Assembly: GCA_002937655.1 (NCBI GenBank)
Contig: PTKH01000005.1
Coordinates: 8,781 to 72,780 of the forward strand
Reading direction: 5' to 3'
DNA length: 64,000 bases
Origin: Alphaproteobacteria bacterium MarineAlpha9_Bin3
GTDB lineage: Bacteria; Pseudomonadota; Alphaproteobacteria; TMED109
Part shown: one piece after another, positions 46,084 to 61,855 of the stretch
Numbering within the stretch: position 1 is the first letter of the stretch
How the letters are laid out: every line of letters begins with the position of its first letter
Notes under the pieces: generated by a model
What the model saw: only the letters and a program-made list of their open reading frames with translations
Told to the model about the DNA's origin: nothing
The model's database searches: none
Made by a program: the position numbers and the translations under genes

Positions 46084-46358
46084 GACTTATATTTAATTCT
46101 TAATAATAAATATATAATAAAAAAAATAACAGTAAAAAAAAATACTGGTAACTCTAATATAGGAAGTATTATTTTAAACCATATGTCTGTATCAATTTTT
46201 AATTGAATATATGAGCTTTCTACAACTTTTTGTAGACCAATAAGTGAATTAACATGCAGTATTCTCCATATTTCACCGAGATTAATATTTGGCTTTTTAA
46301 GTGAGCAAAATAACAAAATAATAAAAATTAAAAAAAAAATATATTTAATTATTCTCAT
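46080..46358 (-). CDS. small membrane protein, unknown function
   Basis: 92 aa with two strongly hydrophobic segments. Its stop shares TTAA with the lepA stop. Confidence 0.4.
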
Positions 46359-46402: not shown

Positions 46403-46768
46403 TTGTTAACTTATTTTCAAATACTTCAATTAGTATCTTTCGCATTTCTTATGTCTTTGGGACAACTATTATTTAAGAAAACTGCTTTGTCAATATCTTC
46501 TGAAGGAGGCTTGAACTTATATGAAGGAATTATGAAAGCTATGCTAGTGCCGTGGCTTTATATGGCTTTATTCGTTTATGCATTAGCAACAGTCTGTTGG
46601 TTATATATTTTACAAAGAATTCCATTATCAATAGCTTATCCTTTTTCTGCTCTTGCTATGATAATTGTTCCTGTCTTTGCAATGATTGTCTTTGGAGAAC
46701 GTTTGAATTATTCATATTGGATTGGTTTAGTTCTTATTCTATTAGGTATATCAATAATAGGTCAATAA
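46403..46768 (+). CDS. EamA/SMR-like four-helix transporter (ArnE/ArnF-like flippase subunit type)
   Basis: 121 aa, four TM helices, PLSIAYPF...GERL...G motif of EamA half-transporters. TTG start. Confidence 0.55.
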   Translation: MLTYFQILQLVSFAFLMSLGQLLFKKTALSISSEGGLNLYEGIMKAMLVPWLYMALFVYALATVCWLYILQRIPLSIAYPFSALAMIIVPVFAMIVFGERLNYSYWIGLVLILLGISIIGQ

Positions 46769-46772
46769 TATA

Positions 46773-46823
46773 TTGACGTTCATATAATGAACGATATATA
46801 ATAATTTTGTTCATTCTGTGAAC
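46773..46823 (+). promoter_or_regulatory. sigma-70-like promoter (TTGACG-N18-TATAAT) with two 15-bp palindromic operators
   Basis: TTGACG 46773-46778 and TATAAT 46797-46802. Perfect palindrome GTTCAT-ATA-ATGAAC at 46778-46792. Near-palindrome GTTCAT-TCT-GTGAAC at 46809-46823. Confidence 0.6.
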
Positions 46824-46851: not shown

Positions 46852-47460
46852 ATGAATAATCATGAAATAAAAAAAGATGATATGACTTTGAATGTTTTAT
46901 CTGCAGTAGATGCTGATAGTCAGATTACTCAAAGATCATTAGCTGCTGAATTGGGAATAGCTTTAGGTTTGACAAATGCCTATTTTAAAAAATGTGTTGA
47001 TAAAGGATTAGTAAAAATCAAGCAAATACCTAAAAAAAGGTATTCATATTATCTTACAAAAAAGGGTTTTACTGAAAAAGCTAGGTTATCTGCTGAATAT
47101 TTAAAATATTCTTTTAATTTTTTAAAAAATACAAAAGTAGAATGCGAAAAAATTATTAAGATATGTATTGATAATAATAATTTATCGATAGTTTTGTCTG
47201 ATAAGTCTGACTTTGCAGAAATCTTAATTTTAAGCGCATTAGACACTAAAGTTGATATTATTGGTGTATTAGGAAATGAAGAAAATAAGTATTGTGGAAA
47301 AAAAGTAATAAAATCTTTAAAAAATATTAATAATGTAGATGTTATCATTATGACTAAATTAGAGAATTCAAATTCTAGATTTGATTACCTTAAAAAGAAA
47401 TATAAAAAATATAATATTATAATTCCACAATTTCTAAATATAGATGGTGAGGAAACATAA
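46852..47460 (+). CDS. winged-helix (MarR-like) transcriptional regulator with Rossmann-like C-terminal domain
   Basis: ITQRSLAAELGIALGLTNAYFKKCVDKGLVK...YYLTKKGFTEKARL wHTH. The C-terminal alternating beta/alpha pattern (IVLSDKSDFAE...VDIIGVLGNEE...VDVIIMT) resembles NeuD/sugar-transferase N-domains. Confidence 0.65.
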   Translation: MNNHEIKKDDMTLNVLSAVDADSQITQRSLAAELGIALGLTNAYFKKCVDKGLVKIKQIPKKRYSYYLTKKGFTEKARLSAEYLKYSFNFLKNTKVECEKIIKICIDNNNLSIVLSDKSDFAEILILSALDTKVDIIGVLGNEENKYCGKKVIKSLKNINNVDVIIMTKLENSNSRFDYLKKKYKKYNIIIPQFLNIDGEET

Positions 47461-47960
47461 TGAAGTATTGGTATGTTATCTATACTATTCATAATCAAGA
47501 ATTTAGGGCTGAAGCTAATTTAAAAAAACAAGGCTTCCAGCTATATTTGCCAAAATATATAGGTACTAGAAAGCATGCTAGAAAAGTAGATAAAATATTA
47601 AAGCCCTTATTTCCAAGATATTTATTTATAAAATTAGATCTATCAATAGATAATATCTCAAAAATTAACTACACTTTTGGAGTAAATAAATTAGTTACTT
47701 TAGGAACTGAGCCTAATATACTACCTGATTTTATAGTTGATAACCTTAAGGCGCAAGAAGATAAAAATGGTAATCTAGATTCTATAATTAATTCAATATA
47801 TAAAATGGGAGAAAATGTAAAATTTAGTAATGGAGTTTTACAAGGAAATAATGCAGTGTTTATGGGTAAAACTGAGAAGCAAAGAGTTTTTGTGTTATTA
47901 GATATTCTTGGAAGAAAGCTTAATATAGCTGTACCTCCTATGTCTTTACAACCTCTGTGA
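47460..47960 (+). CDS. rfaH: RfaH-like specialised NusG paralogue (transcription antiterminator)
   Basis: 166 aa. MKYWYVIY N-terminus, KPLFPRYLFIKLD, and a C-terminal KOW-like GENVKFSNGVLQGNNAVF...RVFVLLDILG. Colinear by eye with E. coli RfaH (162 aa). Start overlaps the regulator stop (TAATG). Confidence 0.7.
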   Translation: MKYWYVIYTIHNQEFRAEANLKKQGFQLYLPKYIGTRKHARKVDKILKPLFPRYLFIKLDLSIDNISKINYTFGVNKLVTLGTEPNILPDFIVDNLKAQEDKNGNLDSIINSIYKMGENVKFSNGVLQGNNAVFMGKTEKQRVFVLLDILGRKLNIAVPPMSLQPL

Positions 47961-47967
47961 GTACAAT

Positions 47968-48264
47968 ATGAACTATGAAAACGAAAATTTTATAGAATTA
48001 ATTTATGGTTCAATAAAGGAAGTAAATAAGCAACTTGCTCCTGAAAATCATTTAAAATTAAAAGTTAATGAGTATTTAGTTTCTGAGAAAAGTCCAATAG
48101 ATTCTTTAGGGTTAATTACTTTATTAATTCACATAGAAGGAGAAATTAGTAAAAACTTTAATCAAAATATAAACTTAATAGAAGAAGAGCTCATTACTGA
48201 AGTGGATACTCCATTTGAAACTATAGGTAGTCTTGCTGAATGGCTTAAAGATAATGTTAAATAA
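47968..48264 (+). CDS. acyl carrier protein
   Basis: 98 aa, acidic, with the phosphopantetheine attachment motif IDSLGLI. Confidence 0.75.
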   Translation: MNYENENFIELIYGSIKEVNKQLAPENHLKLKVNEYLVSEKSPIDSLGLITLLIHIEGEISKNFNQNINLIEEELITEVDTPFETIGSLAEWLKDNVK

Positions 48265-49915
48265 ATATCATTTAATAGCAGACTTTAATATAGAACCTCT
48301 TAAAGGTTTTATTTTAAATTTAGATAGGGAGGCTGAAGTTTCGATATCACCCTACGGCCAGGTGATGCAAGAAATTTATAAAAAAGAAGTTTTTGATAAT
48401 AAAAATGTGATTTTATGGACTTTTATACAAAGTGTTATTCCTAGTTTTTCTGAAGTTTTAAATTTAAATAAGTACAGTGAAAAAAATTGTTTACAAGAAG
48501 TTAAAAAATATAGTGAAGCAATAATCAATTTGTCAAAAAAACAAAAATTTGTTTTTTTAGTTTCTTGGACTTTAGAAGATAGTATTAGTTCTTATGGTCT
48601 TTTAGATTGGAAACCAGATATAGGAGTATCATATATTTTAGCTAAAATTAATATTTATCTTTCTGACCTATTGTCTAAATATAATAATATTTTTATATTA
48701 AATTCTAATTATTGGATACAAAATGCTGATAAGGTGGCACCTAAAATATGGTATGCCACCAAGGTACCTTATTCTCCTTCTGTATTTGATAATGCAGCAA
48801 AAGATATCTATTCTAGTTATCTAGCTCTTAATGGCTTAAATAAAAAAATAATTATATTAGATTTAGATAATACTTTATGGGGAGGAGTTGTAGGAGAATT
48901 AGGTATTGAAGGCGTAAATATTGGAGGCCATAATTTTATAGGAGAAGCTTATCAAGAATTTCAAAGAGCTTTATTAGCACTATCTAATAAAGGTATCCAG
49001 CTAGCAATAGTTAGTAAAAATGATGAGATTGTTGCATTGGAAGTAATTCAAGAACATGATGCTATGGTTTTAAGAAAAAATAATTTTTCAGGTTGGAAAA
49101 TAAATTGGAAAGATAAAGCTAGTAATATTAAAGCTCTTTTAGATGAATTAAATTTAGGTACTTCATCGGCCATATTTATTGATGATAGTCCAATAGAAAG
49201 AGATTGGGTAAAAAAAAGTTTACCTGAAGTTTTAGTACCTGATTGGCCTGATGACCCAGCACTTTATGTAAGAGCATTAGCTGAGCTTAATTGCCTACAT
49301 ACGGCTACAATCAGTAACGAGGATAGAAATCGTACAAAAATGTATGTAGCTGAAAGACAAAGAAAAGAAATTAAAAAAAACAAAGTTTCTTTGGATGATT
49401 GGCTAATTTCTTTAAATACAAAAGTTACAATTCATGCGCTAAATAATAATAATATTAAAAGAGTTACCCAACTATTTAATAAAACAAATCAATTAAATTT
49501 AAAAACTAGACGTTTATCAGAAAAAGAAATTTTAAAATGGCTTAATGAAAATAAACAAAATAAAAAAATGCACATAATAGAAGTAGAAGACAGATTAGGT
49601 AGTATAGGATTAGTAGGTATAATAAGTTTAGAATTAGTAAATAAAGAAGTAATTATAGAAGATTTTATATTAAGTTGTAGGGCAATGGGAAGAAAAATAG
49701 AGCACTTAATGTTATCTCTGGCTTATATTTTTGCAAAAGAAAAAGAAGCAAAAGTTATTAAGGCGGAATTTATTCCTACGAAAAGAAATAGACCAACTTA
49801 TGATATTTTTAATGATTCTATCTTTAAATATTCAAAAGATAATATATTTTTATCAAAAATTGATGCTCAAATAAATTTTCCTAAAGAATTATCTATAGAA
49901 AATAAATCGATTTAA
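48233..49915 (+). CDS. FkbH-like HAD-IIIC phosphatase/acyl-loading protein
   Basis: ILDLDNTLWGG (DxDxT), SKN and DD HAD motifs. C-terminal FILSCRAMGRKIE motif typical of FkbH-like domains. A more likely start is ATG 48254. Confidence 0.75.
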   Translation: MLNGLKIMLNKYHLIADFNIEPLKGFILNLDREAEVSISPYGQVMQEIYKKEVFDNKNVILWTFIQSVIPSFSEVLNLNKYSEKNCLQEVKKYSEAIINLSKKQKFVFLVSWTLEDSISSYGLLDWKPDIGVSYILAKINIYLSDLLSKYNNIFILNSNYWIQNADKVAPKIWYATKVPYSPSVFDNAAKDIYSSYLALNGLNKKIIILDLDNTLWGGVVGELGIEGVNIGGHNFIGEAYQEFQRALLALSNKGIQLAIVSKNDEIVALEVIQEHDAMVLRKNNFSGWKINWKDKASNIKALLDELNLGTSSAIFIDDSPIERDWVKKSLPEVLVPDWPDDPALYVRALAELNCLHTATISNEDRNRTKMYVAERQRKEIKKNKVSLDDWLISLNTKVTIHALNNNNIKRVTQLFNKTNQLNLKTRRLSEKEILKWLNENKQNKKMHIIEVEDRLGSIGLVGIISLELVNKEVIIEDFILSCRAMGRKIEHLMLSLAYIFAKEKEAKVIKAEFIPTKRNRPTYDIFNDSIFKYSKDNIFLSKIDAQINFPKELSIENKSI

Positions 49916-49916
49916 A

Positions 49917-50933
49917 ATGGTTCAAATAGAATTATGTAGTAATAAGGAGATTATTAATTTACAAAAGTTTATTAATAATCATTGGAAGAGTAATCATATT
50001 TTATCAAAAAATATTACTTTACTTAATTGGATGTATAAAAGATGTGAGGGTCTTAATTTTCTTTTAGCAAAAAAGAATAAAAAAATAATAGGCATTTTAG
50101 GTTTTATTAAAAATTCTAATTTTAATAATAATGATTTTATTAGAGATATTATATGGCTAGCACTATGGAAAGTGGTTGAAGAGAAAGCTTATCCCGGATT
50201 AGGTATAATAATGCTTAAAAAATTGGAAAAAATTAATCCAAATATAGATATTGCTGTTTTAGGTATAAATAAATCTTTACCACCAGTATTTAGTGCATTG
50301 AAATATTATTCAGCTACAATGGAACATTATTATATTGTTAATCCTAAGGTTAAAAATTTTTCTATAATTAATATAGATAGGAAAAATAAAATACCTTATC
50401 CTAAGTTACCTAAACATAAAATAATATATAAAAGGATTTATAGAAAAGAGCTTTTATCAGGTAATTACAATTATTACTCTAATAATTTTACTTGTTACAA
50501 GTCTTCTGCTTTCTTTATAAATAAATATCTTGATCACCCTATTTATAAATATAAAATTTTCCATATAGAAAATAGCTCTAGGCAATTTGCCTTAATAGTT
50601 ATAAGAAAAATAAGTATAAATAACACAAATGTTATAAGAATTGTAGATTTTGAAGGAGATGAAGCACTCATAGCATATATTGGAGGTTTTTTATTAAATT
50701 TATTAGACTCAGAAAATGCTGAGTATATTGATTTTTTACAATATGGAATAAATAAGAGTTATTTTTTTGATGCTGGCTTTAAATTATTAAATTATAATCA
50801 AAGAGATATTGTTCCAAATTACTTTGAACCTTTTGTTAAAGAAAATATAAATTTATTGTTTGCGTATAAAACCCAGCCAAGCAATAATATTAGAATTTTT
50901 AAAGCAGATGGTGATCAAGATAGACCAAACTGA
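49917..50933 (+). CDS. hypothetical protein (possible acyltransferase partner of the ACP/FkbH pair)
   Basis: 338 aa with no motif I can name. Tightly packed 1 nt after the FkbH-like gene. Confidence 0.3.
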   Translation: MVQIELCSNKEIINLQKFINNHWKSNHILSKNITLLNWMYKRCEGLNFLLAKKNKKIIGILGFIKNSNFNNNDFIRDIIWLALWKVVEEKAYPGLGIIMLKKLEKINPNIDIAVLGINKSLPPVFSALKYYSATMEHYYIVNPKVKNFSIINIDRKNKIPYPKLPKHKIIYKRIYRKELLSGNYNYYSNNFTCYKSSAFFINKYLDHPIYKYKIFHIENSSRQFALIVIRKISINNTNVIRIVDFEGDEALIAYIGGFLLNLLDSENAEYIDFLQYGINKSYFFDAGFKLLNYNQRDIVPNYFEPFVKENINLLFAYKTQPSNNIRIFKADGDQDRPN

Positions 50934-51013
50934 AAGTAATTAAGTTTTTTACAGAAATTTATTTAATTAAAAAGAAAACTTTAATATTTTTAAATTTAAA
51001 AGAGAAATCAATT

Positions 51014-52006
51014 ATGAAGAATAAACTTACTATAATTATGTACCATTATGTAAGGCCTATAAAAGGCTCTAAATTTCCTAATATTAAAGGCCTAGAGTTA
51101 GAAGAATTTGAAAATCAAATAGAATATATAAGTAAGTATTATAATGTAGTTTCTACAAATGATTATATAGACTCCGAAAAATCAGGAGATACTTTAGGAA
51201 AAAATTCACTTATACTGTCTTTTGATGATGGTTATGCTGATCACTATGATTATGTTTTACCAGTATTAAAAAGGTATAATATGAAAGGTATATTTTTTCC
51301 AGTTGGAAAACCTAGTATTGAAAGGTCTATACTAGATGTAAATAAGATACATTTTATTTTGAATGCTACAAAAGATTTCAAAGAGGTGATAAATTTTTTA
51401 GAAATGAAAATTTCTTCAATAATGAAAGACGGTTTTTATATAGAAAACCTAAGAAGTAAGTTTTATAAAAAAAATAGATTTGATATAGCAGAAGTAAATT
51501 ATATCAAAAGGGTGCTTCAATTAGGTTTACCTTTACAATATAGAGAACAATTAGTTAAAGAACTATTTGCAAAATATGTTTCTAAAGATGAAAAAGATTT
51601 TGCAAATGAGTTATATTTAAGTATAGATCAGCTAAAAGAAATGAGAAGCTATGGAATGGAAATTGGTAGTCATGGATACGAACATTTTTGGCTTGATAGT
51701 TTAAATTTTCTAGATCAGCAAAAAGATATAAAAAAATCTTTTTCTTTATTAAAGATGGTTCAAAATAAAGGAGATAAATTTTTCTTTTGTTATCCATATG
51801 GAGGATATAATAAAGATACCTTGGAAATATTAAATAGTTATAATTGTGCAGCGGGTTTTACATGTGACGTCGGAATATTTAATCCATCAATGTCAAATAT
51901 ATTGGAATTACCTAGATTAGATACAAACGATATGCCTAAAACTAAGAATGCTAGCATTATAGATTGGACTAAAAAAATAATTGATGAGACAAGATTAGAT
52001 GATTAA
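51014..52006 (+). CDS. polysaccharide deacetylase (NodB homology domain)
   Basis: LSFDDGYADHYDYVLPVLKRYNMKGIFF and GSHGYEH motifs. Confidence 0.8.
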   Translation: MKNKLTIIMYHYVRPIKGSKFPNIKGLELEEFENQIEYISKYYNVVSTNDYIDSEKSGDTLGKNSLILSFDDGYADHYDYVLPVLKRYNMKGIFFPVGKPSIERSILDVNKIHFILNATKDFKEVINFLEMKISSIMKDGFYIENLRSKFYKKNRFDIAEVNYIKRVLQLGLPLQYREQLVKELFAKYVSKDEKDFANELYLSIDQLKEMRSYGMEIGSHGYEHFWLDSLNFLDQQKDIKKSFSLLKMVQNKGDKFFFCYPYGGYNKDTLEILNSYNCAAGFTCDVGIFNPSMSNILELPRLDTNDMPKTKNASIIDWTKKIIDETRLDD

Positions 52007-52625
52007 AAAAAGAATAGGAATTATTAATTATGGAATGGGAAATATTCATTCAGTTTATAATGCACTATTATCATTAGGTATAGAATCGATTGTAACAAAT
52101 AATAAAAAAGAATTGCATAGTTGTGATGCATTTATTCTTCCTGGAGTTGGTGCTTTTCCTAATGCGATAAAAAATTTATTAAAATTAGATTTAGTAGATG
52201 AGATAAAAAACCAGGTTTTAAATAAAAATAAAAATATATTGGGGATATGTCTTGGGATGCAGTTATTTGCAGATTACTCAGAAGAAGGTGAATTCAATGA
52301 GGGTTTATCATTGATTCCTGGAAAAGTTATAGATTTAAGCAGAAAGATAACATATAGAGTTCCACACATAGGTTGGAATAGTTTGCTAATTAATGCTAAC
52401 TCTCCTTTATTTGAAGGAATACCTGAGAAACAAGATTTTTATTTCGTGCATAGATATTACTTTGATTGCCATAAGAAATATATTTTAGCTAATACTTCAT
52501 ATGAAATGATGGTAACTTCAGTCATAAATCATAATAATATATACGGGGTGCAATTTCATCCTGAAAGAAGTCATAATACTGGAATAAAATTATTATATAA
52601 TTTTACTCAATTAGAGAATAAATAG
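51999..52625 (+). CDS. imidazole glycerol phosphate synthase HisH-like glutamine amidotransferase (WbuY type)
   Basis: GICLGMQ catalytic Cys and VQFHPERS. Located in a glycan operon beside a HisF-like gene. Confidence 0.8.
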   Translation: MIKKRIGIINYGMGNIHSVYNALLSLGIESIVTNNKKELHSCDAFILPGVGAFPNAIKNLLKLDLVDEIKNQVLNKNKNILGICLGMQLFADYSEEGEFNEGLSLIPGKVIDLSRKITYRVPHIGWNSLLINANSPLFEGIPEKQDFYFVHRYYFDCHKKYILANTSYEMMVTSVINHNNIYGVQFHPERSHNTGIKLLYNFTQLENK

Positions 52626-52636
52626 AGATTAATACG

Positions 52637-53515
52637 ATGTTAAAAAAAAGATTAATTGCATGTCTTCTAATTAAAGATAATTTAATAGTTCAAAGTGTAG
52701 GATTTAATAATTATTATCCTATAGGAAATCCAAGTTTTTCAATTGAATTCATATCAAGGTGGGATGTAGATGAAATTATTTTACTTGATATAACTCCAAA
52801 GAGTGAAAGAGTAAAAAGAGATTATACTCAATTAAAATTATTTATTAAAAAATGTTTTATACCAATTACTTTTGGAGGAGGAATTAGTTGTATAGAAGAT
52901 GTAAATGAAATAATAAAATCTGGAGCGGATAGAATTTCAATAAATTCAAATGCAATAAATAGTCCTGTATTGGTAGAGCAAATAGCTCGTATATATGGTG
53001 AGCAATGTATAGTTACTTCTATAGATTATAAAATTGAAAAAAATGGTGATAAGACAGTTTATAGTAACTCAGGAACAAAAAATACGGGATTAAGTTTATT
53101 GGATTGGGCTAAAAAATGCGAAAGCCTTGGTTCAGGAGAAATTTTACTAAATTCTATAGATAGAGATGGTAAAGGGCAGGGCTATGATATTGATACAATT
53201 AAAGAAGTTAGTAGCAGCGTGAATATTCCTGTAATTGCTTGCGGAGGTGTTGGTAAGTTTTCAGATTTTTCTGAAGCTATTTTAAAAGGTGGGGCATCTG
53301 CAGCTGCAGCTGCAAATATATTTCACTATGTAGAACACAGTACTATCATTGCAAAAGCAAATATGCTTAAAAGTGGAGTAAACATAAGACTTAATAAAAT
53401 TGCTCAATATTCGGATAGAAAATTTGATAAAAATGGAAGATTAATAATGTTAGATAATGATCAATTAGAAAAAGCAGACTGGGCTATAAGAGATAAAAAT
53501 GCAATATTGTACTAG
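52637..53515 (+). CDS. HisF-like cyclase subunit paralogue (WbuZ type)
   Basis: (beta/alpha)8 HisF pattern RLIACLLIKD...DVDEIILLDIT...GGGI...GADRISINS...ACGGVG. Confidence 0.8.
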   Translation: MLKKRLIACLLIKDNLIVQSVGFNNYYPIGNPSFSIEFISRWDVDEIILLDITPKSERVKRDYTQLKLFIKKCFIPITFGGGISCIEDVNEIIKSGADRISINSNAINSPVLVEQIARIYGEQCIVTSIDYKIEKNGDKTVYSNSGTKNTGLSLLDWAKKCESLGSGEILLNSIDRDGKGQGYDIDTIKEVSSSVNIPVIACGGVGKFSDFSEAILKGGASAAAAANIFHYVEHSTIIAKANMLKSGVNIRLNKIAQYSDRKFDKNGRLIMLDNDQLEKADWAIRDKNAILY

Positions 53516-54827
53516 ATGTTTATATCCTGAAAATCATCCCTATGGACTTATTTTTGATGAAGATGGTGTTTGTAGTGGGTGTCGTGTACATGAAGAAAAA
53601 GATATTTTAAATTGGTCGGAAAGATTAAATCTTTTAAAAAATATAGTAGCAGAAAATAAAAAGTATGTAAGTGGTAACAATTTTGATTGTATAGTTCCTG
53701 TATATGGAGGAGGAGATAGTTATTTTACGGTTCATGTGGTAAAAAATATATTAAAAATGAATCCTTTATTGGTTCATTATAATTCAGAGTTTAATACTAA
53801 AATGGGTATTAGAAATTTAGCAAATTTAGCTACAGTATTCGATTGTGATATGGTGACTTCTACTCTTGCCCCTTCTTTATTAAAGAGAATAACTAGAGCT
53901 ACAATGAAAAAATATGGAAATATGTATTGGCAGGTTTTAGCTGGAAGATATACATTTCCTGTACAAGTAGCGGTAAAGTATAGAATACCATTAATATTTT
54001 GGGGTGTACATCCCTGGTCAGATCAAACAGGCATGTTTCAACATATTAATGAAGTAGAAATGACAGAAAGGTGCAGGAAAGAGCATGGATTATTTGGTGT
54101 GTCTGCAGAAGATATAGTTGGTTTAGAGGGCTTGACAAGATCTGAAATGCAAAATTTTATTTACCCTTATGATAATGAGATAGAAGCAATAGGTGTAAGA
54201 GGAATATATTTAAGTAATTATATAAGATGGGATTCAAAAAAACAACATGAACAAATGATTGGTTTATATGGTTATGAAACTAACTTGCAACAAAGAACTT
54301 TTAACACTTATGAAGATATTCATTGTTTTCACTCAGCAGGAATTCATGATTATCTAAAATATATCAAGTTAGGTTATGGTAAAATAACTGATCATGCTAC
54401 CCGAGAAATAAGATTAAAAAGAATGACAAGAGCAGAAGGAATTAATTTAGTTAAAAACTTAAAACAGCAAGAACCAAAAGATTTAGAGATTTTTTTAAAT
54501 TGGGTTGAGTTTACGAGAGAAGAATTTAAAAATCTTTACTGGAATAGACGTGACACTAATATTTGGAAAAAAAATAAAAATGAAGAGTGGGCACTTAGAG
54601 ATAGTATTGAAAATTATAAAACAGGAGATCTTATAGAAAAAGTAAAGCTAGAAAAAATTGAAGATTGTAAATTTATATTAACAGAAAAGGCTGAGCCAGA
54701 TGATATCGAAAATAAATACTTACTTATGGGAAGAAATTATATAAATAAAGATAATTATGGAGCAATAAAGAACACTGTTAAGGGCGGAGGAATGACAAAA
54801 AGAAAATGGAAAGAAAGTTCATTATAA
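53499..54827 (+). CDS. N-acetyl sugar amidotransferase (PseA/WbpG/WbuX family), paralogue 1
   Basis: N-terminal Zn-ribbon CTRC...CSGC. PP-loop-like VPVYGGGDS, which departs from the canonical SGGKDS. Confidence 0.75.
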   Translation: MQYCTRCLYPENHPYGLIFDEDGVCSGCRVHEEKDILNWSERLNLLKNIVAENKKYVSGNNFDCIVPVYGGGDSYFTVHVVKNILKMNPLLVHYNSEFNTKMGIRNLANLATVFDCDMVTSTLAPSLLKRITRATMKKYGNMYWQVLAGRYTFPVQVAVKYRIPLIFWGVHPWSDQTGMFQHINEVEMTERCRKEHGLFGVSAEDIVGLEGLTRSEMQNFIYPYDNEIEAIGVRGIYLSNYIRWDSKKQHEQMIGLYGYETNLQQRTFNTYEDIHCFHSAGIHDYLKYIKLGYGKITDHATREIRLKRMTRAEGINLVKNLKQQEPKDLEIFLNWVEFTREEFKNLYWNRRDTNIWKKNKNEEWALRDSIENYKTGDLIEKVKLEKIEDCKFILTEKAEPDDIENKYLLMGRNYINKDNYGAIKNTVKGGGMTKRKWKESSL

Positions 54828-54842
54828 TTTGAGGAATATAAA

Positions 54843-55952
54843 GTGAGATATTGTAAAAGATGTGTTTTGCCTGATACAAAACCAGGTGTAGTAATAGATG
54901 AATCTGGTATCTGCAGTGTATGTAGAACGGTAGAAGCTAAAAAAACAATTGATTGGCAAAGACGTGATTTACAGTTGAGAGAAATATGTAATTCCATTAA
55001 AGGCAGAAACGGTCACGGGTATGATTGTATTGTTCCTGTCAGTGGAGGTAAAGATAGTATTTATCAAGTACATGCTATGAAAAATATTTATGGTTTAAGA
55101 GTTCTGGCAGTTAATATAAGTGCACATATTCATACTGTAGAGGGTATATTAAATCTTAATTCAATGATTGAAAACTTAGATGTAGACTTTATTAAAGTTG
55201 CAGTGCGGCCCAGCACACATAGAAAAATTAGAAAAATGGCATTAATAAAAGTTGGAAACCCAAATTTTGCAGAACATAGAATTGTTTTTTCAGCGGTAGC
55301 TCGAGCAGCCTTATTTTATAATGTCCCACTAGTAGTATGGGGAGAAGATATAGCAGTTGAATTTGGTGGTAATGTAGATAAAAAAAGTGAACCTGGCTCT
55401 GCTGAGGATATGATAAATAATGATTTATTTAGAGAAATAGGATTTGAAGAACTGATCGGAGATGAAATCAATCAAAATGAACTATTTTTTTATAAGAATC
55501 CTGAAAAGAGTCTTGTTAAGAAAGCTAATATAAAAAGTATTTATTTGGGGCATTATCATTGGTGGGATGGAACTAAGAATTATGAAGTAGCTAAAAAATA
55601 TGGATTTATTCCAAGAAAAGAAGGACCTCTCTCAGGAAATTATATTGATTATGATAACATAGATGAGCGATTATGTGAGATTCATCTTTGGTTCAAATTT
55701 ATAAAATTAGGTTTCTGGAGGCCAACAGACCATGTATGTTATAAAATATGGAATGGATATATGGAAAGAGAAGAGGCTGTAGAAATAGTGAATAAATTAC
55801 AATATGATTTCCCGACTGAATATTTTCAAGATTTCTTAGATTTTCACGATTTAAAAGAAGATGAATTTTGGGATATAGCAGAAAAATGGCGAAATAAAGA
55901 AATTTTTCATAAAGTTAATAATGAATGGAGATTAAAGAACGAATTAAGATAA
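54843..55952 (+). CDS. N-acetyl sugar amidotransferase (PseA/WbpG/WbuX family), paralogue 2
   Basis: GTG start. CKRC...CSVC Zn-ribbon and canonical PP-loop VPVSGGKDS. Confidence 0.8.
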   Translation: MRYCKRCVLPDTKPGVVIDESGICSVCRTVEAKKTIDWQRRDLQLREICNSIKGRNGHGYDCIVPVSGGKDSIYQVHAMKNIYGLRVLAVNISAHIHTVEGILNLNSMIENLDVDFIKVAVRPSTHRKIRKMALIKVGNPNFAEHRIVFSAVARAALFYNVPLVVWGEDIAVEFGGNVDKKSEPGSAEDMINNDLFREIGFEELIGDEINQNELFFYKNPEKSLVKKANIKSIYLGHYHWWDGTKNYEVAKKYGFIPRKEGPLSGNYIDYDNIDERLCEIHLWFKFIKLGFWRPTDHVCYKIWNGYMEREEAVEIVNKLQYDFPTEYFQDFLDFHDLKEDEFWDIAEKWRNKEIFHKVNNEWRLKNELR

Positions 55953-55993
55953 GGTTTTTTAATTATTACCAAAACTATTTTATTCACTTATGC

Positions 55994-56028
55994 TTGACGT
56001 TCATAATATGAACATAATATACTATAAT
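55994..56028 (+). promoter_or_regulatory. second copy of the TTGACG / GTTCAT-N3-ATGAAC promoter-operator cassette
   Basis: TTGACG 55994-55999. Palindrome GTTCAT-AAT-ATGAAC at 55999-56013. TATACT 56018-56023 has the same 18-nt spacing as the first cassette; TATAAT lies at 56023-56028. Confidence 0.6.
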
Positions 56029-56108
56029 TGCAAATTATTTGAAAATATTATCTAAGTAAATAATATTTTAATAAGTTGCTCTTGGGTTAATTTTAAATTC
56101 ACCCTAAT

Positions 56109-56120
56109 GGCGGTAGCGTG
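56109..56120 (+). promoter_or_regulatory. ops (operon polarity suppressor) element, exact GGCGGTAGCGTG
   Basis: Perfect match to the enterobacterial ops consensus GGCGGTAGnnTG. On the coding strand of the leader, followed by T6, 107 nt before ATG 56228. Confidence 0.65.
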
Positions 56121-56227
56121 TTTTTTCATAAATATTTTTATTAAAGTAAAATTTTAATTTTTAAATTGTAAAAAATTAAAATTACGAAAGATATATAAAC
56201 TTATAATAGAATGGAAGAATATTTAAA

Positions 56228-57283
56228 ATGTATAAAAATATACCAAAAGATATTTCTTTTGTTAATAAAGAAAAATTATCCAAATATATAACATATTCAA
56301 ATTCATCGATAAAAGATGCGATGACTAAATTAAACCTTACTCTAGAATTATTTCAAATAATTCTGGATCAGGAAGGTAAATTTTTAGGAACTTTAACGGA
56401 TGGTGATATTAGAAGAGGTCTGCTTGCAGGCAGTGAAATTAATGATAATGTAATGAAATTTATTAATTCTAATCCTCTATTGGGAGAAATAAGTAAGGAA
56501 AGTGAAAATTTAAATACTTTAAACAAAGTAGATAGATATCCAATGTTTTTGCCTATAATTGATAAAAAATTTCTATTAGAAGGTATATTAATAAAAACTG
56601 AAATTACTGATATAAATCACGCTTTAATTGTTGCAGGAGGAATAGGCTCACGTTTAGGTGATTTAACAAAACATATACCTAAACCAATGCTAGAAGTAGA
56701 TGGAAAGCCTATACTAGAACATTGTATCAATAAATTAGAGGATGCTAATATTAGTACGATTTATGTTTCTGTTAATTATTTAAGTGAGCAAATTATTAAT
56801 TTTATAAAAAGTAAAAATTTTAAATCTAATATCATACCAGTAAAAGAAAATTCCAAATTAGGAACAATAGGTTCTTTATTTTTAATAAAAGAAGAAACTA
56901 ATTATCCATTATTAGTTATGAACGCTGATTTGGTTACAACATTATCTCTTTCAGCTTTAATGTCATTTTATAGAGCTGAAAACGTAGATGGTTTAATTAC
57001 TGCTGCAACTTTTGAGAGTAGTATACCTTTTGGCGTATTAAAATATAATAGTTTAGGTCAATTGGAAAGGATTGAAGAGAAGCCAATATCTAAAAATTTA
57101 ATAGCTGCAGGTGTATATATACTGAATAAAAATATTTCCTCATTAATTAAAAAAGAAGAGTTTATAGATATGCCAGAATTATTAGATAAAGCTATAAAAA
57201 ATGGATTAAATATAGGTGTTTTCCCAATACATGAAAAATGGACTGATATTGGAAGACCTGAAGATTATTTCAATATAAAGTAA
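56228..57283 (+). CDS. CBS-domain-containing sugar-phosphate nucleotidyltransferase (PtmE-like architecture)
   Basis: N-terminal CBS pair (GTLTDGDIRRGL). C-terminal IVAGGIGSRLGDLTKHIPKPML nucleotidyltransferase domain. Confidence 0.75.
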   Translation: MYKNIPKDISFVNKEKLSKYITYSNSSIKDAMTKLNLTLELFQIILDQEGKFLGTLTDGDIRRGLLAGSEINDNVMKFINSNPLLGEISKESENLNTLNKVDRYPMFLPIIDKKFLLEGILIKTEITDINHALIVAGGIGSRLGDLTKHIPKPMLEVDGKPILEHCINKLEDANISTIYVSVNYLSEQIINFIKSKNFKSNIIPVKENSKLGTIGSLFLIKEETNYPLLVMNADLVTTLSLSALMSFYRAENVDGLITAATFESSIPFGVLKYNSLGQLERIEEKPISKNLIAAGVYILNKNISSLIKKEEFIDMPELLDKAIKNGLNIGVFPIHEKWTDIGRPEDYFNIK

Positions 57284-57329
57284 AAAAAGAATTAAATTTT
57301 TATAATTAAAATACTTATTGAGGGAATAA

Positions 57330-58019
57330 ATGAATAATTTAAATAAAAACACAATAATATGTTTTGTTGCACATCCAGATGATGAAGTTCTTGGCCTAGG
57401 TGGTACATTAATTAAGCATGTAAACCAAAAGGATGACGTTCATATTATTATTTTTTCATTAGGGGAAGAATCTAAAAATAGTAAAGATATTAATGCTGAA
57501 AGACGCTTAAGTAGCGCAAAGAAATGTTCAAAAATTATAGGTAGTAAAAGCTTAAAATTGTTGAATTATCCAGATCAAAAAATAGATACAGTTCCAAAGC
57601 TTGAGATAATTAAAAAAATAGAAAATATTATATATAAGTTAAAGCCTAATATTGTATATACACATCATGAAGGGGATATAAACCACGATCATCAAATAAT
57701 TAATCACGCCGTTTTGACTGCATTAAGACCTATGACTTTATTGGGACATAGATGTGAAGTTAGAACTTTTGAAACAATTTCATCTACTGAGCAATCGCCT
57801 TATATAGATAAGTATTTATTTAAACCTAATTTTTTTGTAGATATTGAATCCGAATGGGAAAAAAAAATGATAGCCATAAAGGCGTATAAAGATGAGCTAG
57901 GAGTATTTCCACATCCTAGATCTATAAAATCAATTGAGGCATTAGCTATTAAACGAGGTACAGAGTCAGGTTTAAAAAAAGCAGAAGCTTTTCGTATTAT
58001 TAGGAAAATATGGCATTAA
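57330..58019 (+). CDS. PIG-L / LmbE family de-N-acetylase
   Basis: VAHPDDEVLGLGG and HHEGDINHDH motifs. Confidence 0.8.
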   Translation: MNNLNKNTIICFVAHPDDEVLGLGGTLIKHVNQKDDVHIIIFSLGEESKNSKDINAERRLSSAKKCSKIIGSKSLKLLNYPDQKIDTVPKLEIIKKIENIIYKLKPNIVYTHHEGDINHDHQIINHAVLTALRPMTLLGHRCEVRTFETISSTEQSPYIDKYLFKPNFFVDIESEWEKKMIAIKAYKDELGVFPHPRSIKSIEALAIKRGTESGLKKAEAFRIIRKIWH

Positions 58020-58025
58020 AAAATA

Positions 58026-59822
58026 ATGTTTAAATTCAAACAAAAACATATTCATATTATTAATTTTTTACAAATATCTAAAGATTTAAAATTAGTTTCA
58101 TTACAGCGTTTTATATTTTTAGTATCTATTATAATTTTTGTAATGTTATTTGATGCTCTAAGTATTATTTCTATAATGCCATTGGTTCAATTTATTCAAG
58201 TAGGACAGAATATTGATGCATTTATTGATACGGCAGGTTATGGAAAGCAGTTAGTAGCTGTTTATAATTTTTTTTCAATTAAATTTAATTTAATTAGTTT
58301 ATCTATAATTTTATTATTGTTTATAGTGCTGAGGCAATTTATTAATATATTTGAAATACAAGAAACAGAAAGAACTAGATTAAGTATTGCCAAAAATTTA
58401 TCTATTAATTGTTTTTCCAAAATTATGCAGGCGAAGGCTGATTATATTAGAAACATAAAGCAGGGTCAATTCACAGTAATTTGTGAGAGTGAATGTAGTA
58501 GAGCTAGTCTTGTATATAAAGGAATTCTTCAGTTTATTAGTACATTATTTCAAATAGGAGCTTACGCTGTAGTAATGTTTTATGTAGCGCCGCTTATGAC
58601 GTTACTAGCAGTTTTAGTAATTATGATTCTTATTATATCAATGTATACATTTGTAAAGAGGTCTCATAGGGCAGGACAAATGGTGGTTAACGTGAGACAG
58701 AAGTTTTACAATTTTATTAGTGAGAATTTTTCAATATGGAGATTATTTAAATTTGGAGGATCCATAAAAAATGAACTTAATAAGGTAGAGTTGTTAGCAG
58801 ATTCATATGCAAATAAACAATTATCTATTATTAAATATAATAATTTATCTCGTTTTATAATTGCTATTGTTGCGATGTTTTTATGTGTAGTTTTCTTAAA
58901 TTTATCGGTAAATTATTTTAATTTTGACTTTAGTAAGATAACTTTATTCGCGTTAATATTTATTAGAATGATACCTCTAGGCCAGAGGTTAAATGGTATT
59001 ATTAATTCTATAGTTTCATGGGCACCTTCGTTAACTATTATTAAGAATACATTGGATGAAGCTGATAAGCATAAAGAAGAGTTGAATGTTGGTTCTGAGT
59101 TTAAAACTTCTAAGGCGGAAATAAAATTTCAAAATGTTAGTTTTAGTTATAGGACATCAAAAGATAAAATTATTTTGAATAATATAAATTTAACTATACC
59201 GTCTAATAAAATTACGGCAATTGTAGGAAGATCTGGTGCAGGTAAATCAACATTAATTGACTTGCTTCCTAGAATTATATCTCCTAATAACGGTTCTATT
59301 TATATCAATGATATTGATATTAAAGATTTTTCTTTATCTTCTTATAGAAATAATATTTCATTTGTATCACAAGATAATATTTTATTTGATGGTAGTATCA
59401 AGGAAAACATTGGATATTATAATCAAGATGCTAAATTTTCAGAAATCAAGCAGGCTAGCATCTTATCTGGAGCAAATGATTTTATTAAAACATTACCAAG
59501 TCAATATGATTATAATATTGGGGAAAAAGGACAAAAACTCTCAGGGGGACAAAAGCAAAGGTTAATTCTTGCAAGAGCGTTTTTAACAAAATCAAGAATT
59601 TTAATTTTAGATGAAGCAACTAGCGCTCTTGATCATTTATCAGAATTACATATAAAAAAATCTATAAAAGAATTTTTGAAAGTAAATAATTCCACTATTA
59701 TTATAATTGCTCATAGACATACTACGATAGAAAATGCAGATTATGTAGTCTATTTGGATAAAGGCGAAATTAAGGATACAGGAAAGCCTGAATATATATT
59801 TAATAAATATTATTCAGCATAA
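58026..59822 (+). CDS. fused TMD-NBD ABC exporter (MsbA/PglK type)
   Basis: Six predicted TM helices, then GRSGAGKST, LSGGQKQR and ILILDEATSALD. Confidence 0.85.
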   Translation: MFKFKQKHIHIINFLQISKDLKLVSLQRFIFLVSIIIFVMLFDALSIISIMPLVQFIQVGQNIDAFIDTAGYGKQLVAVYNFFSIKFNLISLSIILLLFIVLRQFINIFEIQETERTRLSIAKNLSINCFSKIMQAKADYIRNIKQGQFTVICESECSRASLVYKGILQFISTLFQIGAYAVVMFYVAPLMTLLAVLVIMILIISMYTFVKRSHRAGQMVVNVRQKFYNFISENFSIWRLFKFGGSIKNELNKVELLADSYANKQLSIIKYNNLSRFIIAIVAMFLCVVFLNLSVNYFNFDFSKITLFALIFIRMIPLGQRLNGIINSIVSWAPSLTIIKNTLDEADKHKEELNVGSEFKTSKAEIKFQNVSFSYRTSKDKIILNNINLTIPSNKITAIVGRSGAGKSTLIDLLPRIISPNNGSIYINDIDIKDFSLSSYRNNISFVSQDNILFDGSIKENIGYYNQDAKFSEIKQASILSGANDFIKTLPSQYDYNIGEKGQKLSGGQKQRLILARAFLTKSRILILDEATSALDHLSELHIKKSIKEFLKVNNSTIIIIAHRHTTIENADYVVYLDKGEIKDTGKPEYIFNKYYSA

Positions 59823-59847
59823 CATTAAATTATAAAGGAAATATGAA

Positions 59848-60846
59848 TTGATTTTAAATAAAAAAAATATATTGATTACTGGCGGAACTGGTTCTTTTGG
59901 AAAAAAATTTATTGATATGGTTTTAAAAAAATATAAACCTAATAAATTGATTATTTTCAGTCGAGATGAGCAAAAGCAATATGAAATGGCTCAAAATATT
60001 TCAGAAAAAAAATATCCAAATATTCGTTATTTTATTGGAGATGTGAGAGACAAAAATAGGCTATATAGAGCTTGTGCAGATATAGACTATATTATTCATG
60101 CTGCGGCAATGAAGCATGTAACTTCTTCTGAGTATAATCCTACGGAATGTATTGATACTAATATTCACGGGGCCCAAAATGTTATTGATGCAGCTATAAA
60201 TAATAACGTAAATAAAGTAATAGCACTTTCTACAGACAAAGCAGCAAGTCCTATAAATTTATATGGAGCAACTAAGTTATGTTCTGATAAGTTGTTTATT
60301 GCTGCAAATAATTTATCAGGAAAACATCAAACTCGTTTTTCAGTTGTTAGATATGGAAATGTAATTAATTCCAGAGGAAGTGTAATACCTCATTTTAGAA
60401 AGTTATTACAAGAAGGTGCAAAGAAACTTCCTATAACAGATATTAACATGACCAGATTTGTAATAAAACTGGATCAAGGTGTAGATTTTGTTTTAAAAGC
60501 ATTATTTAACATGAGTGGAGGAGAAATTTTTGTACCTAAAATACCTAGTATTAATATTTTAGATTTAGTTACATGTATGGCTGGTGAAGGTCAATATGAA
60601 GTTATAGGAATTAGGCCGGGTGAAAAATTGCATGAAGTTATGATTCCTAGAGAAGAATCTTTAAATTGTATTGATATGGAGGAATATTACATTATTCAGC
60701 CAATGTTTTCCTGGTGGAACACTGACAAACTAAAAAAATCTATTGGTAATAAAGGTAAAGCTGTTTCAAGGTCTTTTGAATATTCAAGTCATACTAATAA
60801 AAATTTTTTATCCTTAAAAAGTATAAGAAATATCGTATTAAAGTAA
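59848..60846 (+). CDS. pseB: UDP-N-acetylglucosamine 4,6-dehydratase (inverting)
   Basis: TTG start. ITGGTGSFGK, FSRDEQKQ and YGATKLCSDK; 332 aa, colinear with PseB/FlaA1. Confidence 0.85.
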   Translation: MILNKKNILITGGTGSFGKKFIDMVLKKYKPNKLIIFSRDEQKQYEMAQNISEKKYPNIRYFIGDVRDKNRLYRACADIDYIIHAAAMKHVTSSEYNPTECIDTNIHGAQNVIDAAINNNVNKVIALSTDKAASPINLYGATKLCSDKLFIAANNLSGKHQTRFSVVRYGNVINSRGSVIPHFRKLLQEGAKKLPITDINMTRFVIKLDQGVDFVLKALFNMSGGEIFVPKIPSINILDLVTCMAGEGQYEVIGIRPGEKLHEVMIPREESLNCIDMEEYYIIQPMFSWWNTDKLKKSIGNKGKAVSRSFEYSSHTNKNFLSLKSIRNIVLK

Positions 60847-60871
60847 TAATTTGTATGGTTAATATTAATTA

Positions 60872-61855
60872 ATGTTAAAGTTAGGAATTAGAGTTTCCAC
60901 GGAAGGTAGCTCAGGAAGAGGTCACTTTCATAGATGTTTAAATATTAGGCGTTATATAAACGAAAAAGTTTATTGGTTTGTAGATGAGCAATCTTCTTTT
61001 ATTAAAAATAGAATCCCTAATTTTGATTACTTATTTGTTGAGAAAGATAGAAATAATTTTTTAACTTTAAGAAAATATATTCAAAAAAGTCATATAAATT
61101 GTGTTTTGATTGATAGTTATCATATTAATGTTACTGATTTTTATAATATAAATTTAAATGTTCCAATTATAGCTTTGATTGACAAAAATATCAGAATAAA
61201 AGCTGATCTCGTAGTGAGTCCACAGCCGATAGATATAGAATTACAAAATGATGTTAAATATCTTTGTGGCCCAAAATATTCGCCAATTAACTCTATATTT
61301 TTTAATAAAGACAAAAAAGAATTTTTTAAAAATAAAATTCTGATTTCTTTTGGCGCTTATGACAATAATAGAATTTCAATAAATGTTGTGAAAGCTATCA
61401 AAAATATTCTTTCATCTAATTCATGGAAATTAGATGTTGTAATTTTACTTGGTAAGGATTCTTTAATCATCAACGAGATTAGAACCCTAATAAAAAATTT
61501 TAAAAATTTTCAATTAATAATAGAACCAAAAAATATTGAAAACATATATAATGAATGTAATATAGCCTTAGGGGCACCAGGATTATCATATATGGAAAGA
61601 TTAGCTTCAGGTTTACCTAATATATTAATACCACAAAATAATATTCACATAGACTTAATAGATAAATGGGTAAAGTTAGGTTGTGCGATAAAAGCTGAAA
61701 ATTCTATAAGGTCAATTCAAGATAGCTTAAATTTACTTATTTTAGATAATACTTTAAAAAATAAGCTAATTAAAACCGGTCATAAATTTATAGATGGAAA
61801 AGGAGGAATTAGAATAGCAAAAGAAATAAAAAAGTTGGTAAATTTTTATGATTAA
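60872..61855 (+). CDS. pseG: UDP-2,4-diacetamido-2,4,6-trideoxy-beta-L-altropyranose hydrolase-like GT-B protein
   Basis: IRVSTEGSSGRGHFHRCL N-terminus matches the PseG R-x-D/E-x4-G-x-GH-x-x-R pattern. Positioned between pseB and pseC. Confidence 0.65.
   Translation: MLKLGIRVSTEGSSGRGHFHRCLNIRRYINEKVYWFVDEQSSFIKNRIPNFDYLFVEKDRNNFLTLRKYIQKSHINCVLIDSYHINVTDFYNINLNVPIIALIDKNIRIKADLVVSPQPIDIELQNDVKYLCGPKYSPINSIFFNKDKKEFFKNKILISFGAYDNNRISINVVKAIKNILSSNSWKLDVVILLGKDSLIINEIRTLIKNFKNFQLIIEPKNIENIYNECNIALGAPGLSYMERLASGLPNILIPQNNIHIDLIDKWVKLGCAIKAENSIRSIQDSLNLLILDNTLKNKLIKTGHKFIDGKGGIRIAKEIKKLVNFYD

Follow-up and report, generated by a model that had tools for sequence, protein, structure and literature searches.

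The transcription factor RfaH is a textbook case of both sequence-specific elongation-factor recruitment and protein fold-switching, and to our knowledge nearly all mechanistic insight into it comes from the Escherichia coli protein. Among other specialised paralogues of NusG, LoaP acts through a leader RNA hairpin and not through ops DNA, the sequence that RfaH reads, and in Bacteroides the UpxY proteins are paired with UpxZ, a trans-inhibitor of the UpxY of other loci. Here, we present an analysis of a gene for an RfaH-like NusG paralogue (47460..47960, + strand, 166 aa) in a 64,000-nt stretch of the marine metagenome-assembled genome (MAG) 'Alphaproteobacteria bacterium MarineAlpha9_Bin3' (the whole stretch is hereafter the window), including the winged helix-turn-helix (wHTH) regulator gene in front of it (46852..47460, + strand, 202 aa), the promoters and operators of the locus, and an ops element further downstream. 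Judging from sequence, we consider it fairly probable that a conserved regulatory cassette, in which the paralogue stands second, controls a long glycan island (O-chain or nonulosonic acid) by the mechanism proposed below.

The published basis for the ops/RfaH mechanism is found in two studies (PMC5995543 and PMC7593976). In E. coli RfaH, recruitment is lost with each of the substitutions K10A, H20A and R73A, and the pocket for ops base T6 is made up of H20, R23, Q24 and R73 (PMC5995543). The phylogenetic survey of Wang et al. 2020 (mBio, PMC7593976) placed 18% of RfaH genes in Alphaproteobacteria, found one RfaH cluster linked to an HTH (helix-turn-helix) regulator, and concluded that the ops contacts and autoinhibition arise late in RfaH evolution. 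A 2026 preprint (Tabilo-Agurto et al., PMC13015549), which drew its sequences from ColabFoldDB, from InterPro IPR010215 and from Cluster 1 of Wang et al. 2020, the one that contains E. coli, describes a 'mixed alpha/beta' class of RfaH homologues with lower model confidence, and reports that homologues predicted as mixed or beta preferentially adjoin the long operons they target and show constitutive activity in vivo.

Profile, sequence and fold matches support the reading that the ORF at 47460-47960 encodes a specialised NusG paralogue of RfaH type. It starts with ATG, a GAGGA box lies a few bases 5' of the start, and the final base of the TAA stop of the regulator ORF is its own first base (TAATG), so that the translational coupling claimed in the original prediction is present as described. 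E. coli RfaH (2OUG/5OND) is the best sequence match in the PDB (HMMER, E = 6e-15, residues 1-158 against RfaH 1-154), and the resemblance first noticed by eye holds, with all of the named motifs in place (MKYWYVIY against MQSWYLLY, PLFPRYLF against PLFPNYLF, and RVFVLLDILGR against RSMLLLNLINK in E. coli RfaH). The NGN domain is recognised by Pfam NusG at residues 2-96 (E = 7.6e-19). Among the profiles for RfaH, UpxY, NusG and LoaP, those for RfaH score highest for the window protein and for 29/29 close relatives, which bears out the earlier assignment to a specialised paralogue: the window protein reaches 122.2 bits with TIGR01955 (cut-off 144.5) and 95.4 with PRK09014 (cut-off 124), followed by 72.8 with UpxY NF033644 (cut-off 100), 44.6 with NusG TIGR00922 (cut-off 135.7) and 44.5 with LoaP NF033641 (cut-off 125). 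An identical protein, PPR16751.1, is named 'Transcription antitermination protein RfaH' in GenBank and belongs to the Tara Oceans MAG named above; the same protein occurs on at least 23 contigs, and those listed are marine metagenome assemblies, mostly from Tara Oceans. The wider family comprises 7,321 clusters at E <= 1e-3, with at least 1,816 at E <= 1e-10.

The genomic setting likewise corresponds to the original prediction in that it is not the secE-nusG-rplK context of a housekeeping gene. The paralogue is preceded by lepA, a small membrane ORF, an EamA/ArnE-like gene and the wHTH gene, and followed by an acyl carrier protein (ACP)-like ORF and an FkbH gene; in the relatives examined, it always lies at the boundary of the glycan island. 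It stands second, behind the wHTH gene, and the 98-aa ORF after it has no significant family match, which differs from the UpxY-type order of a first gene followed by upxZ; its coupling to the wHTH gene and linkage to an ops operon also differ from a stand-alone gene acting on unlinked operons. The window has a G+C content of 27%, its LepA is ~85% identical to that of contigs labelled Pelagibacterales in GenBank, and the gene order of the lepA region is much alike in the two. Between such genomes the RfaH-like protein is 38-40% identical, its sequence thus differing at ~60%.

The ops element, GGCGGTAGCGTG (56109-56120, + strand, which is the coding and non-template strand), is the only exact copy of the E. 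coli 12-mer in the window, and the identity of the 12-mer and its position ~8 kb downstream of the paralogue agree with what was first reported. It lies in a 275-nt gap (55953-56227) between a 369-aa gene and a nucleoside triphosphate (NTP)-transferase gene, beginning 8,149 nt past the stop of the RfaH-like gene, ~80 nt downstream of the predicted start site of a promoter (P2, below) and 108 nt upstream of the next ATG, and a T-rich tract follows it immediately on the 3' side. By our estimate, an exact 12-mer is expected by chance ~1e-4 times per window at 27% G+C. The motif GGCGGTAG occurs once in the window, and at least one match was obtained in 13/100 shuffles. With its flank, the element reads TCACCCTAATGGCGGTAGCGTG, an instance of the extended form TCACCC-N4-(T/G)GCGGTAGC that is common to 42 related loci, on the coding strand only.

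These related loci come from a comparative set of 80 genome loci among the matches listed and one metagenome locus (L090), whose homologues are 32-43% identical to the window protein and belong to Rhodospirillales, Hyphomicrobiales (e.g. Bradyrhizobium), Kiloniella and some Gammaproteobacteria, with no closely related Pelagibacterales genome among the matches listed; close relatives (L084-L089 and L101-L110) were collected separately from this 81-locus set by exact-protein look-up. The motif GCGGTAG occurs within 250 nt after the rfaH stop in 37/77 loci against 1.28 expected (29-fold, Poisson P = 1.7e-40), and CACCC-N3-6-GCGGTAG is found in 43 copies in 42 loci on the coding strand and in none on the other strand. 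The co-occurrence of paralogue and ops that had been put forward for checking is therefore borne out, Pelagibacterales contigs included.

Two layouts of the module can be distinguished. In the contiguous layout, represented by 35 loci, ops follows 60-130 nt after the rfaH stop, while in the split layout, represented by seven, it is displaced by 1.9-7.0 kb, and operators of the kind described below lie 54-174 nt upstream of ops in all seven displaced loci and in L039. The window has the split layout (8.1 kb), as does a Tara contig (L101/L102) with an RfaH 65% identical to that of the window; there TTGACGTTCATACTATGAAC stands 118 nt before GGCGGTAGCTTG, the corresponding spacing in the window being 116 nt, and the unit of operator-promoter and ops lies one gene after rfaH, before a nonulosonic-acid operon. 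The Pelagibacterales contigs L103-L110 are contiguous, running from lepA through EamA, wHTH, rfaH (164 aa) and hairpin/ops to PIG-L. In L103-L106, TCACCCagagTGCGGTAGC lies 48 nt after the rfaH stop, and PIG-L is followed by genes for a 598-aa ATP-binding cassette (ABC) exporter, a PseB-like dehydratase (333 aa), a glycosyltransferase (326 aa) and an aminotransferase (392 aa), which matches the series behind ops in the window in length and, for the window genes covered by the Pfam scan (all but the final two), in Pfam family. As a negative control, related island DNA lacking rfaH (~85 kb, reached through homologues of the NTP-transferase) contained neither the operator nor the ops motif.

A second feature of the leader is a stem-loop in front of ops (56078..56111, + strand), with TCACCC (56099-56104) as its 3' arm, which ends at or overlaps the first three ops nucleotides. 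CACCC forms the 3' arm of the minimum free energy hairpin in 34/35 related elements (mean z -2.0), and the stems end 0-4 nt before ops or overlap its first bases. Arms pair better with their own partners than with swapped ones (-15.3 vs -12.7 kcal/mol; better in 5000/5000 permutations), and compensatory changes are found at six stem pairs, e.g. CACCT with AGGTG in L107. MAFFT/RNAalifold on the raw ops flanks left the 5' arms unaligned because loop lengths vary, and the covariation register was instead set by taking the arms from each sequence's own fold and replacing the loops by AAAA; the resulting score of 0.253 compares with 0.144 for shuffles (0/500 reached it) and at most 0.122 for slid controls, although anchoring on own folds biases the inner five pairs and only the outer six, in plain register, are unbiased. 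Between the end of the stem and the U11 pause position there are 10-13 nt, and the stem may serve as a pause-stabilising RNA hairpin.

This leader is related in plan to the JUMPstart family, Rfam RF01707, whose consensus has a stem-loop ending just before GGCGGUAGCGUG; the same order of hairpin and ops is found here, and we have withdrawn the idea that a hairpin before ops is a novelty in itself. RF01707 gave no match at E <= 10 in the window (55900-56300) or in seven related loci, and no leader family was recovered at gathering score in the window or in seven further loci, while the E. coli waaQ leader, used as a positive control, scored 55.2 bits. As a separate observation, the waaQ JUMPstart/ops leader of E. 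coli K-12 (L117 12167-12239) is annotated as the small RNA RirA.

Within the 369-aa gene (54843-55952), at window positions 55293-55301, the coding strand also carries an ops-like core, aGCGGTAGCt. The corresponding core in L084/85, TGCGGTAGCT (L084 12532-12541), equals the Pelagibacterales ops core, and in L087 the core lies at 13018. It consists of GC-rich codons, which we judge unusual at 27% G+C, and is kept in all three lineages. Synonymous identity at this core is 0.75-0.89 against 0.56 gene-wide, a value that is locally raised and not unique, and no CACCC hairpin precedes it; the core could be an internal loading site or a coincidence of coding conservation.

The two largest intergenic gaps of the island both hold a TTGACGTTCA-N5-TGAAC block, at 46773 and 55994. 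The first lies in promoter P1 (TTGACG-18 nt-TATAAT, 46773..46802, + strand), the best sigma-70-like match on the + strand between 44 and 64 kb (11/12), and the second in promoter P2 (TTGACG-18 nt-TATACT, 55994..56023, + strand, 10/12). In each case TTGACG, 18 nt and a -10-like hexamer surround the palindrome, which therefore fills the promoter spacer: operator O1, GTTCATATAATGAAC, lies at 46778..46792 inside P1 and operator O3, GTTCATAATATGAAC, at 55999-56013 inside P2, while operator O2, GTTCATTCTGTGAAC, lies at 46809..46823, 31 bp downstream of O1 and over the predicted start-site region. These are the three copies of GTTC-N7-GAAC in the 64 kb (46778, 46809 and 55999), against 0.23 expected, and none of 100 shuffles reached three. 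In all 57 loci with the wHTH-rfaH order, the 250 nt upstream of the wHTH gene contain one to three of these palindromes, the palindrome being fused to TTGAC in 49 of them (as a TTGAC.TTC block) and in all AT-rich relatives aligned, and in most related P1 regions a second operator lies 21-33 bp from the first.

Extra TTGACGTTCA-N5-TGAAC promoters without ops occur across lepA, at L103 2492-2536 and L107 3324-3343, where they precede a NeuB/cupin gene and a transaldolase-like gene, and they point to a regulon wider than the RfaH targets in those genomes. No further site of this kind was found in the window, all 64 kb of which were scanned for the palindrome.

The protein that may bind these operators is the product of the gene between P1 and the paralogue. 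Its winged helix is recognised by Pfam HTH_24 (8.9e-10), and NCBIfam MarR_EPS TIGR04176 matches at 64.4 bits (cut-off 88) over residues 8-100 only. An AlphaFold2 (AF2) model (predicted local distance difference test, pLDDT, of 81) has the N-terminal winged helix, a long helix at 70-107 and a C-terminal Rossmann-like alpha/beta domain, the last lying outside the coverage of TIGR04176. Foldseek of the model gave weak matches to MarR-family regulators and CggR; for the C-terminal domain, a PDB sequence search gave no match and the fold search only weak, non-specific ones, and from the model we take this domain to be a candidate ligand sensor. Homologues of the regulator number 1,596 at E <= 1e-3, some of them labelled Pelagibacterales in GenBank, and a full-length homologue is encoded directly upstream of rfaH on the same strand in 57/81 loci and directly downstream in three.

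The sequences themselves show what the elements are, how they are arranged, that they strictly co-occur and that the hairpin covaries. Taken together with the position of ops, this arrangement suggests the following circuit. A dimer of the wHTH regulator would bind GTTCA-N5-TGAAC in the spacer and start region of P1 and, 8.5 kb downstream, in the spacer of P2, and both promoters would probably be repressed until a ligand is sensed by the Rossmann-like domain. Firing of P1 would then yield the regulator, the translationally coupled RfaH-like protein and the cargo genes directly behind it (block A, below). Polymerase arriving from P2, or reading through from P1, would transcribe the stem-loop and ops leader, pause, and expose ops on the non-template strand, whereupon the NGN domain of the RfaH-like protein would bind the paused complex and stay on polymerase, excluding NusG and Rho-dependent termination and so allowing full-length transcription of the AT-rich operon. 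The original prediction had proposed a two-tier cascade, in which a repressor-gated promoter makes the antiterminator that then licenses the ops operon; its testable components stand, with P1 in front of regulator and antiterminator and the ops operon 8 kb on, but the P2 promoter at ops carries the same operator as P1, which implies a coherent feed-forward gate and not a simple cascade.

The sign of regulation in this circuit, namely that the wHTH protein acts as a repressor, is inferred from the position and geometry of the operators. It is rather unlikely that, in an otherwise identical circuit, the wHTH protein serves as an activator or dual regulator of P1 and P2: the fusion of a half-site to TTGAC in the 49/57 loci may represent a class-II-type site overlapping the -35 element, and some MarR/SlyA-type proteins do activate transcription, but O1 in the spacer between -35 and -10 and O2 over the start region of a near-consensus promoter have the classical geometry of steric repression and autorepression, and P1 and P2 look strong enough without an activator.

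How the RfaH-like protein would recognise ops is a further question, as its reading surface departs from that of E. coli RfaH. The residue caveat of the original prediction proved exact, Y8 and Q24 being kept while K10, H20 and R73 are replaced by Ile, Asn and Phe, and this is a trait of the clade. Besides Y8 and Q24, the window protein keeps Q13, R16, T72, G74 and V75 and has R23 changed to Lys, and at the autoinhibition positions E48 is changed to Lys and I93 to Val, with F130 kept and R138 kept as R142. Across 86 relatives aligned to E. coli RfaH, the DNA-binding patch is largely constant, with Q24 conserved in 82, T72 in 83 and G74 in all 86, and V75 counted as conserved in the clade as well; the salt-bridge residue corresponding to R138 is likewise conserved in 86/86 and the autoinhibition residue F130 in 70/86. 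Among the side chains that read ops, R23 is conserved in 64/86 and H20 in 40/86 (Asn in 41), K10 in 16/86 and R73 in 7/86 (mostly Phe, Ile, Val or Leu), and the salt-bridge residue E48 is conserved in 6/86. The ops bases G5 and T6, on the other hand, are invariant in more than 40 elements, except for one A6 variant (L090). An invariant core next to proteins that mostly lack the ops-reading residues leaves two readings, one in which this clade has another way of reading ops and one in which ops serves chiefly as a pause.

The AF2 model of the RfaH-like protein, built on a 29-sequence alignment, has a mean pLDDT of 80.6 with a confident NGN domain (pLDDT 85-95), and its best Foldseek matches are structures of autoinhibited E. 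coli RfaH (5OND/8PFG/8PIB, target-normalised TM 0.70-0.75). The C-terminal domain, for which the original prediction had weighed an alpha-hairpin against a beta-barrel, is modelled as neither cleanly but as mixed, with strands at 119-121 and 131-133 and a helix at 139-149.

We tentatively suggest, as a doubtful but possible extension, that the wHTH/RfaH/hairpin-ops cassette is the ancestral, self-contained RfaH system, with a different ops-reading head, a hairpin-reinforced pause and first loading on the very polymerase that transcribes rfaH. The alternative head would consist of Asn or His at 20, Q24, T72-G74-V75 and, where Arg stands at position 73 in E. coli, a hydrophobic residue, and pausing at ops would be strengthened by the nascent-RNA hairpin 10-13 nt behind the pause site. 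If this is true, read-out of ops is older than the K10, R73 and E48 features with which sequence-specific recruitment begins in current models, and the cassette is a ligand-gated master switch of the hypervariable surface glycan island in regulator-poor SAR11-type genomes.

A still less probable reading than the activator circuit takes the altered surface at face value: the paralogue would be a constitutively active, monomorphic protein that loads in cis and independently of the ops sequence, with ops and hairpin as a pause that gives time for loading. Such a protein would fit the layout regarded as ancestral, in which a single transcript carries both rfaH and, 48-130 nt past its stop, ops, the poor conservation of K10, H20, R73 and E48, the mixed class of the window model, and the beta and mixed homologues that adjoin their targets and are constitutively active in vivo (PMC13015549). 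A pure pause signal, however, needs no invariance of the kind seen at G5 and T6, Q24, T72, G74, V75, F130 and the R138 equivalent remain conserved, and the best fold matches are to autoinhibited RfaH. Moreover, ops lies 0.7-8 kb from rfaH behind its own promoter in the window and nine other loci, and an ops displaced in this way would call for a diffusible, trans-acting factor.

That the ORF is the genome's housekeeping NusG and its ops match fortuitous is very improbable and was rejected on profile score, gene context and evolutionary rate: it does have an NGN domain, and the assessment covers the window and its relatives, but it scores far below the TIGR00922 cut-off, lies outside the secE-nusG-rplK context, is only 38-40% identical between genomes whose LepA is ~85% identical, has homologues beside glycan genes in Bradyrhizobium and Kiloniella, genera that carry canonical NusG, and is accompanied by ops with conserved flanks in 42 loci.

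Several findings nevertheless weigh against the cassette as we read it. Both RfaH models score below their equivalog cut-offs, and the housekeeping-nusG question was judged from the window and its relatives. Three of the four E. coli ops-reading side chains are replaced (K10I, H20N and R73F, with R23K a conservative change), the salt-bridge residue E48 is Lys, and the C-terminal domain is predicted as mixed at a pLDDT of 51-85 in 10-residue blocks (residues 111-160). The stem-loop of the window itself is weak (-6.7 kcal/mol, z -0.65), and strict co-occurrence is the sole tie between the wHTH protein and the palindromes. No intrinsic terminators are predicted in the island, so that the presumed target of antitermination is, by analogy, Rho-dependent polarity. 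Finally, the contigs L084-L089 (63% identical) have no hairpin-ops or second operator-promoter within 10 kb downstream; P1 and its two operators are retained there, as are the gene pair and cargo block A, and the likely position of their ops (after a PglD-like gene, as in L101) lies beyond the 10-kb stretch covered.

The genes that the circuit would control fall into two groups. Cargo block A (47968..55952, + strand) consists of eight tightly packed genes co-directional with rfaH and without ops in front: ACP-like, FkbH, one of unknown type, a polysaccharide deacetylase, a HisH-like/HisF-like amidotransferase pair and two further unknowns. The first two, the ACP-like 98-aa ORF and the FkbH-domain protein (266 bits), lie directly after rfaH (47968-49915), and FkbH/ACP, the HisH/HisF-like pair and the deacetylase suggest an unusual acyl or glyceryl and amidino sugar decoration. 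The target operon downstream of ops (56228..63023, + strand), which runs on towards the end of the window, encodes a CBS/NTP-transferase, a PIG-L deacetylase, an ABC exporter (598 aa), a PseB-like 4,6-dehydratase and proteins of 327 and 391 aa. Block A is missing between rfaH and ops in L103-L110, and the simplest history, as far as sequence comparison allows, would be that block A, a copied operator-promoter and the gene for the NTP-transferase ended up between rfaH and its ops.

Additionally, the regulator/RfaH pair at the lepA-EamA boundary belongs to one of two allelic classes (L103-L110 as against window 46852-47960), with RfaH proteins of 164 and 166 aa that are 38-40% identical and regulators that are 47-50% identical. 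Between the window and L087, identity is 87% for LepA, 74% for the regulator, 63% for RfaH and 58-74% for most cargo genes, while the last two genes of block A (window 53499-55952, L087 11224-13677) are 91% and 96% identical, which suggests recent recombination over a tract that stops at the P2/ops junction; the island is, on these comparisons, a mosaic.

Between lepA and the promoter of the regulator, the window holds a 92-aa hydrophobic ORF (46080-46358, - strand) and a gene for a 121-aa EamA/ArnE-like small transporter (46403-46768, + strand), both of which are conserved in relatives whose contigs reach this region. ArnE-like flippase subunits are usually paired, and one copy was seen at the window locus. 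The only Rfam match in the window is a tRNA gene with a long variable arm (26556-26642, 56 bits).

The RfaH annotation, the presence of RfaH in Alphaproteobacteria, the association of an RfaH cluster with an HTH regulator and the hairpin-then-ops (JUMPstart) layout are already known. Neither a MarR_EPS/RfaH module nor RfaH in SAR11 was the subject of any paper that we found in the literature, although the text of a Pelagibacterales O-chain paper was possibly unsearchable. Nor did the searchable literature yield a description of the operator consensus or of its occurrence at P1 as well as P2, of the contiguous and split layouts, of a leader that resembles JUMPstart but diverges from it, of the invariant ops core with an altered reading surface, or of the cassette at the boundary of a SAR11-type glycan island.

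Hypervariable glycan islands are thought to shape phage susceptibility and grazing. On the evidence of sequence, the module is probably a conserved switch with which a SAR11-like marine bacterium controls its island of genes for cell-surface sugars, which suggests that such an island is under dedicated transcriptional control, a form of control unmentioned in the searchable papers. Further, the clade spans Alphaproteobacteria and some gammaproteobacterial members with an unchanged ops core, while most members replace R73, K10 and E48, and it adds a dedicated partner that would bind the operator; it can, thus, serve as a natural experiment on how ops is read and on when autoinhibition arose in RfaH evolution. 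The combination of promoter-operator, regulator, antiterminator and loading site would also represent a compact, portable circuit for expressing long AT-rich operons.

In comparison with known systems, the window paralogue resembles LoaP of Firmicutes and TaA of Myxococcus in being a specialised NusG paralogue encoded with a long biosynthetic operon, but differs from LoaP in sequence, as its profile score is far below the LoaP cut-off. With Bacteroides UpxY/UpxZ it shares the locus-encoded NusG paralogue that heads a polysaccharide locus and is paired with a second regulatory gene, as well as divergent alleles at equivalent loci (here at the same lepA boundary), whereas its partner is a DNA-binding wHTH protein encoded upstream and recruitment would be through ops DNA. 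Like the homologues in the recent preprint (PMC13015549), it has a part-strand, part-helix C-terminal domain of lower confidence and lies in or next to a long lipopolysaccharide-type operon, but the wHTH partner, the operator and a displaced ops with its own promoter are outside that description. The RfaH/HTH neighbourhood of cluster CL4 in Wang et al. 2020 is very probably the same pairing; that account (PMC7593976) gives the neighbourhood only and describes no operator, ops, hairpin or circuit, and in contrast to the late origin that it assigns to ops contacts and autoinhibition, ops here accompanies proteins that mostly lack R73, K10 and E48.

The closest comparison is with E. coli RfaH itself and its ops/JUMPstart leaders (waaQ, rfb, kps, hly and tra). 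Shared are the two-domain architecture of NGN and KOW-like domains in ~160 aa, the identical ops 12-mer on the non-template strand, the long 5' leader and the long polysaccharide operon behind it, along with a stem-loop that ends just before ops and a T-rich tract right after it. Unlike in E. coli, K10, H20, R73 and E48 are replaced and the scores fall below the equivalog cut-offs, the hairpin of the clade is of the form GGGTG/CACCC and is undetected by RF01707 at E <= 10, the gene does not stand alone but sits behind a coupled wHTH regulator and in linkage with its target, and the target promoter bears the putative operator of the partner regulator.

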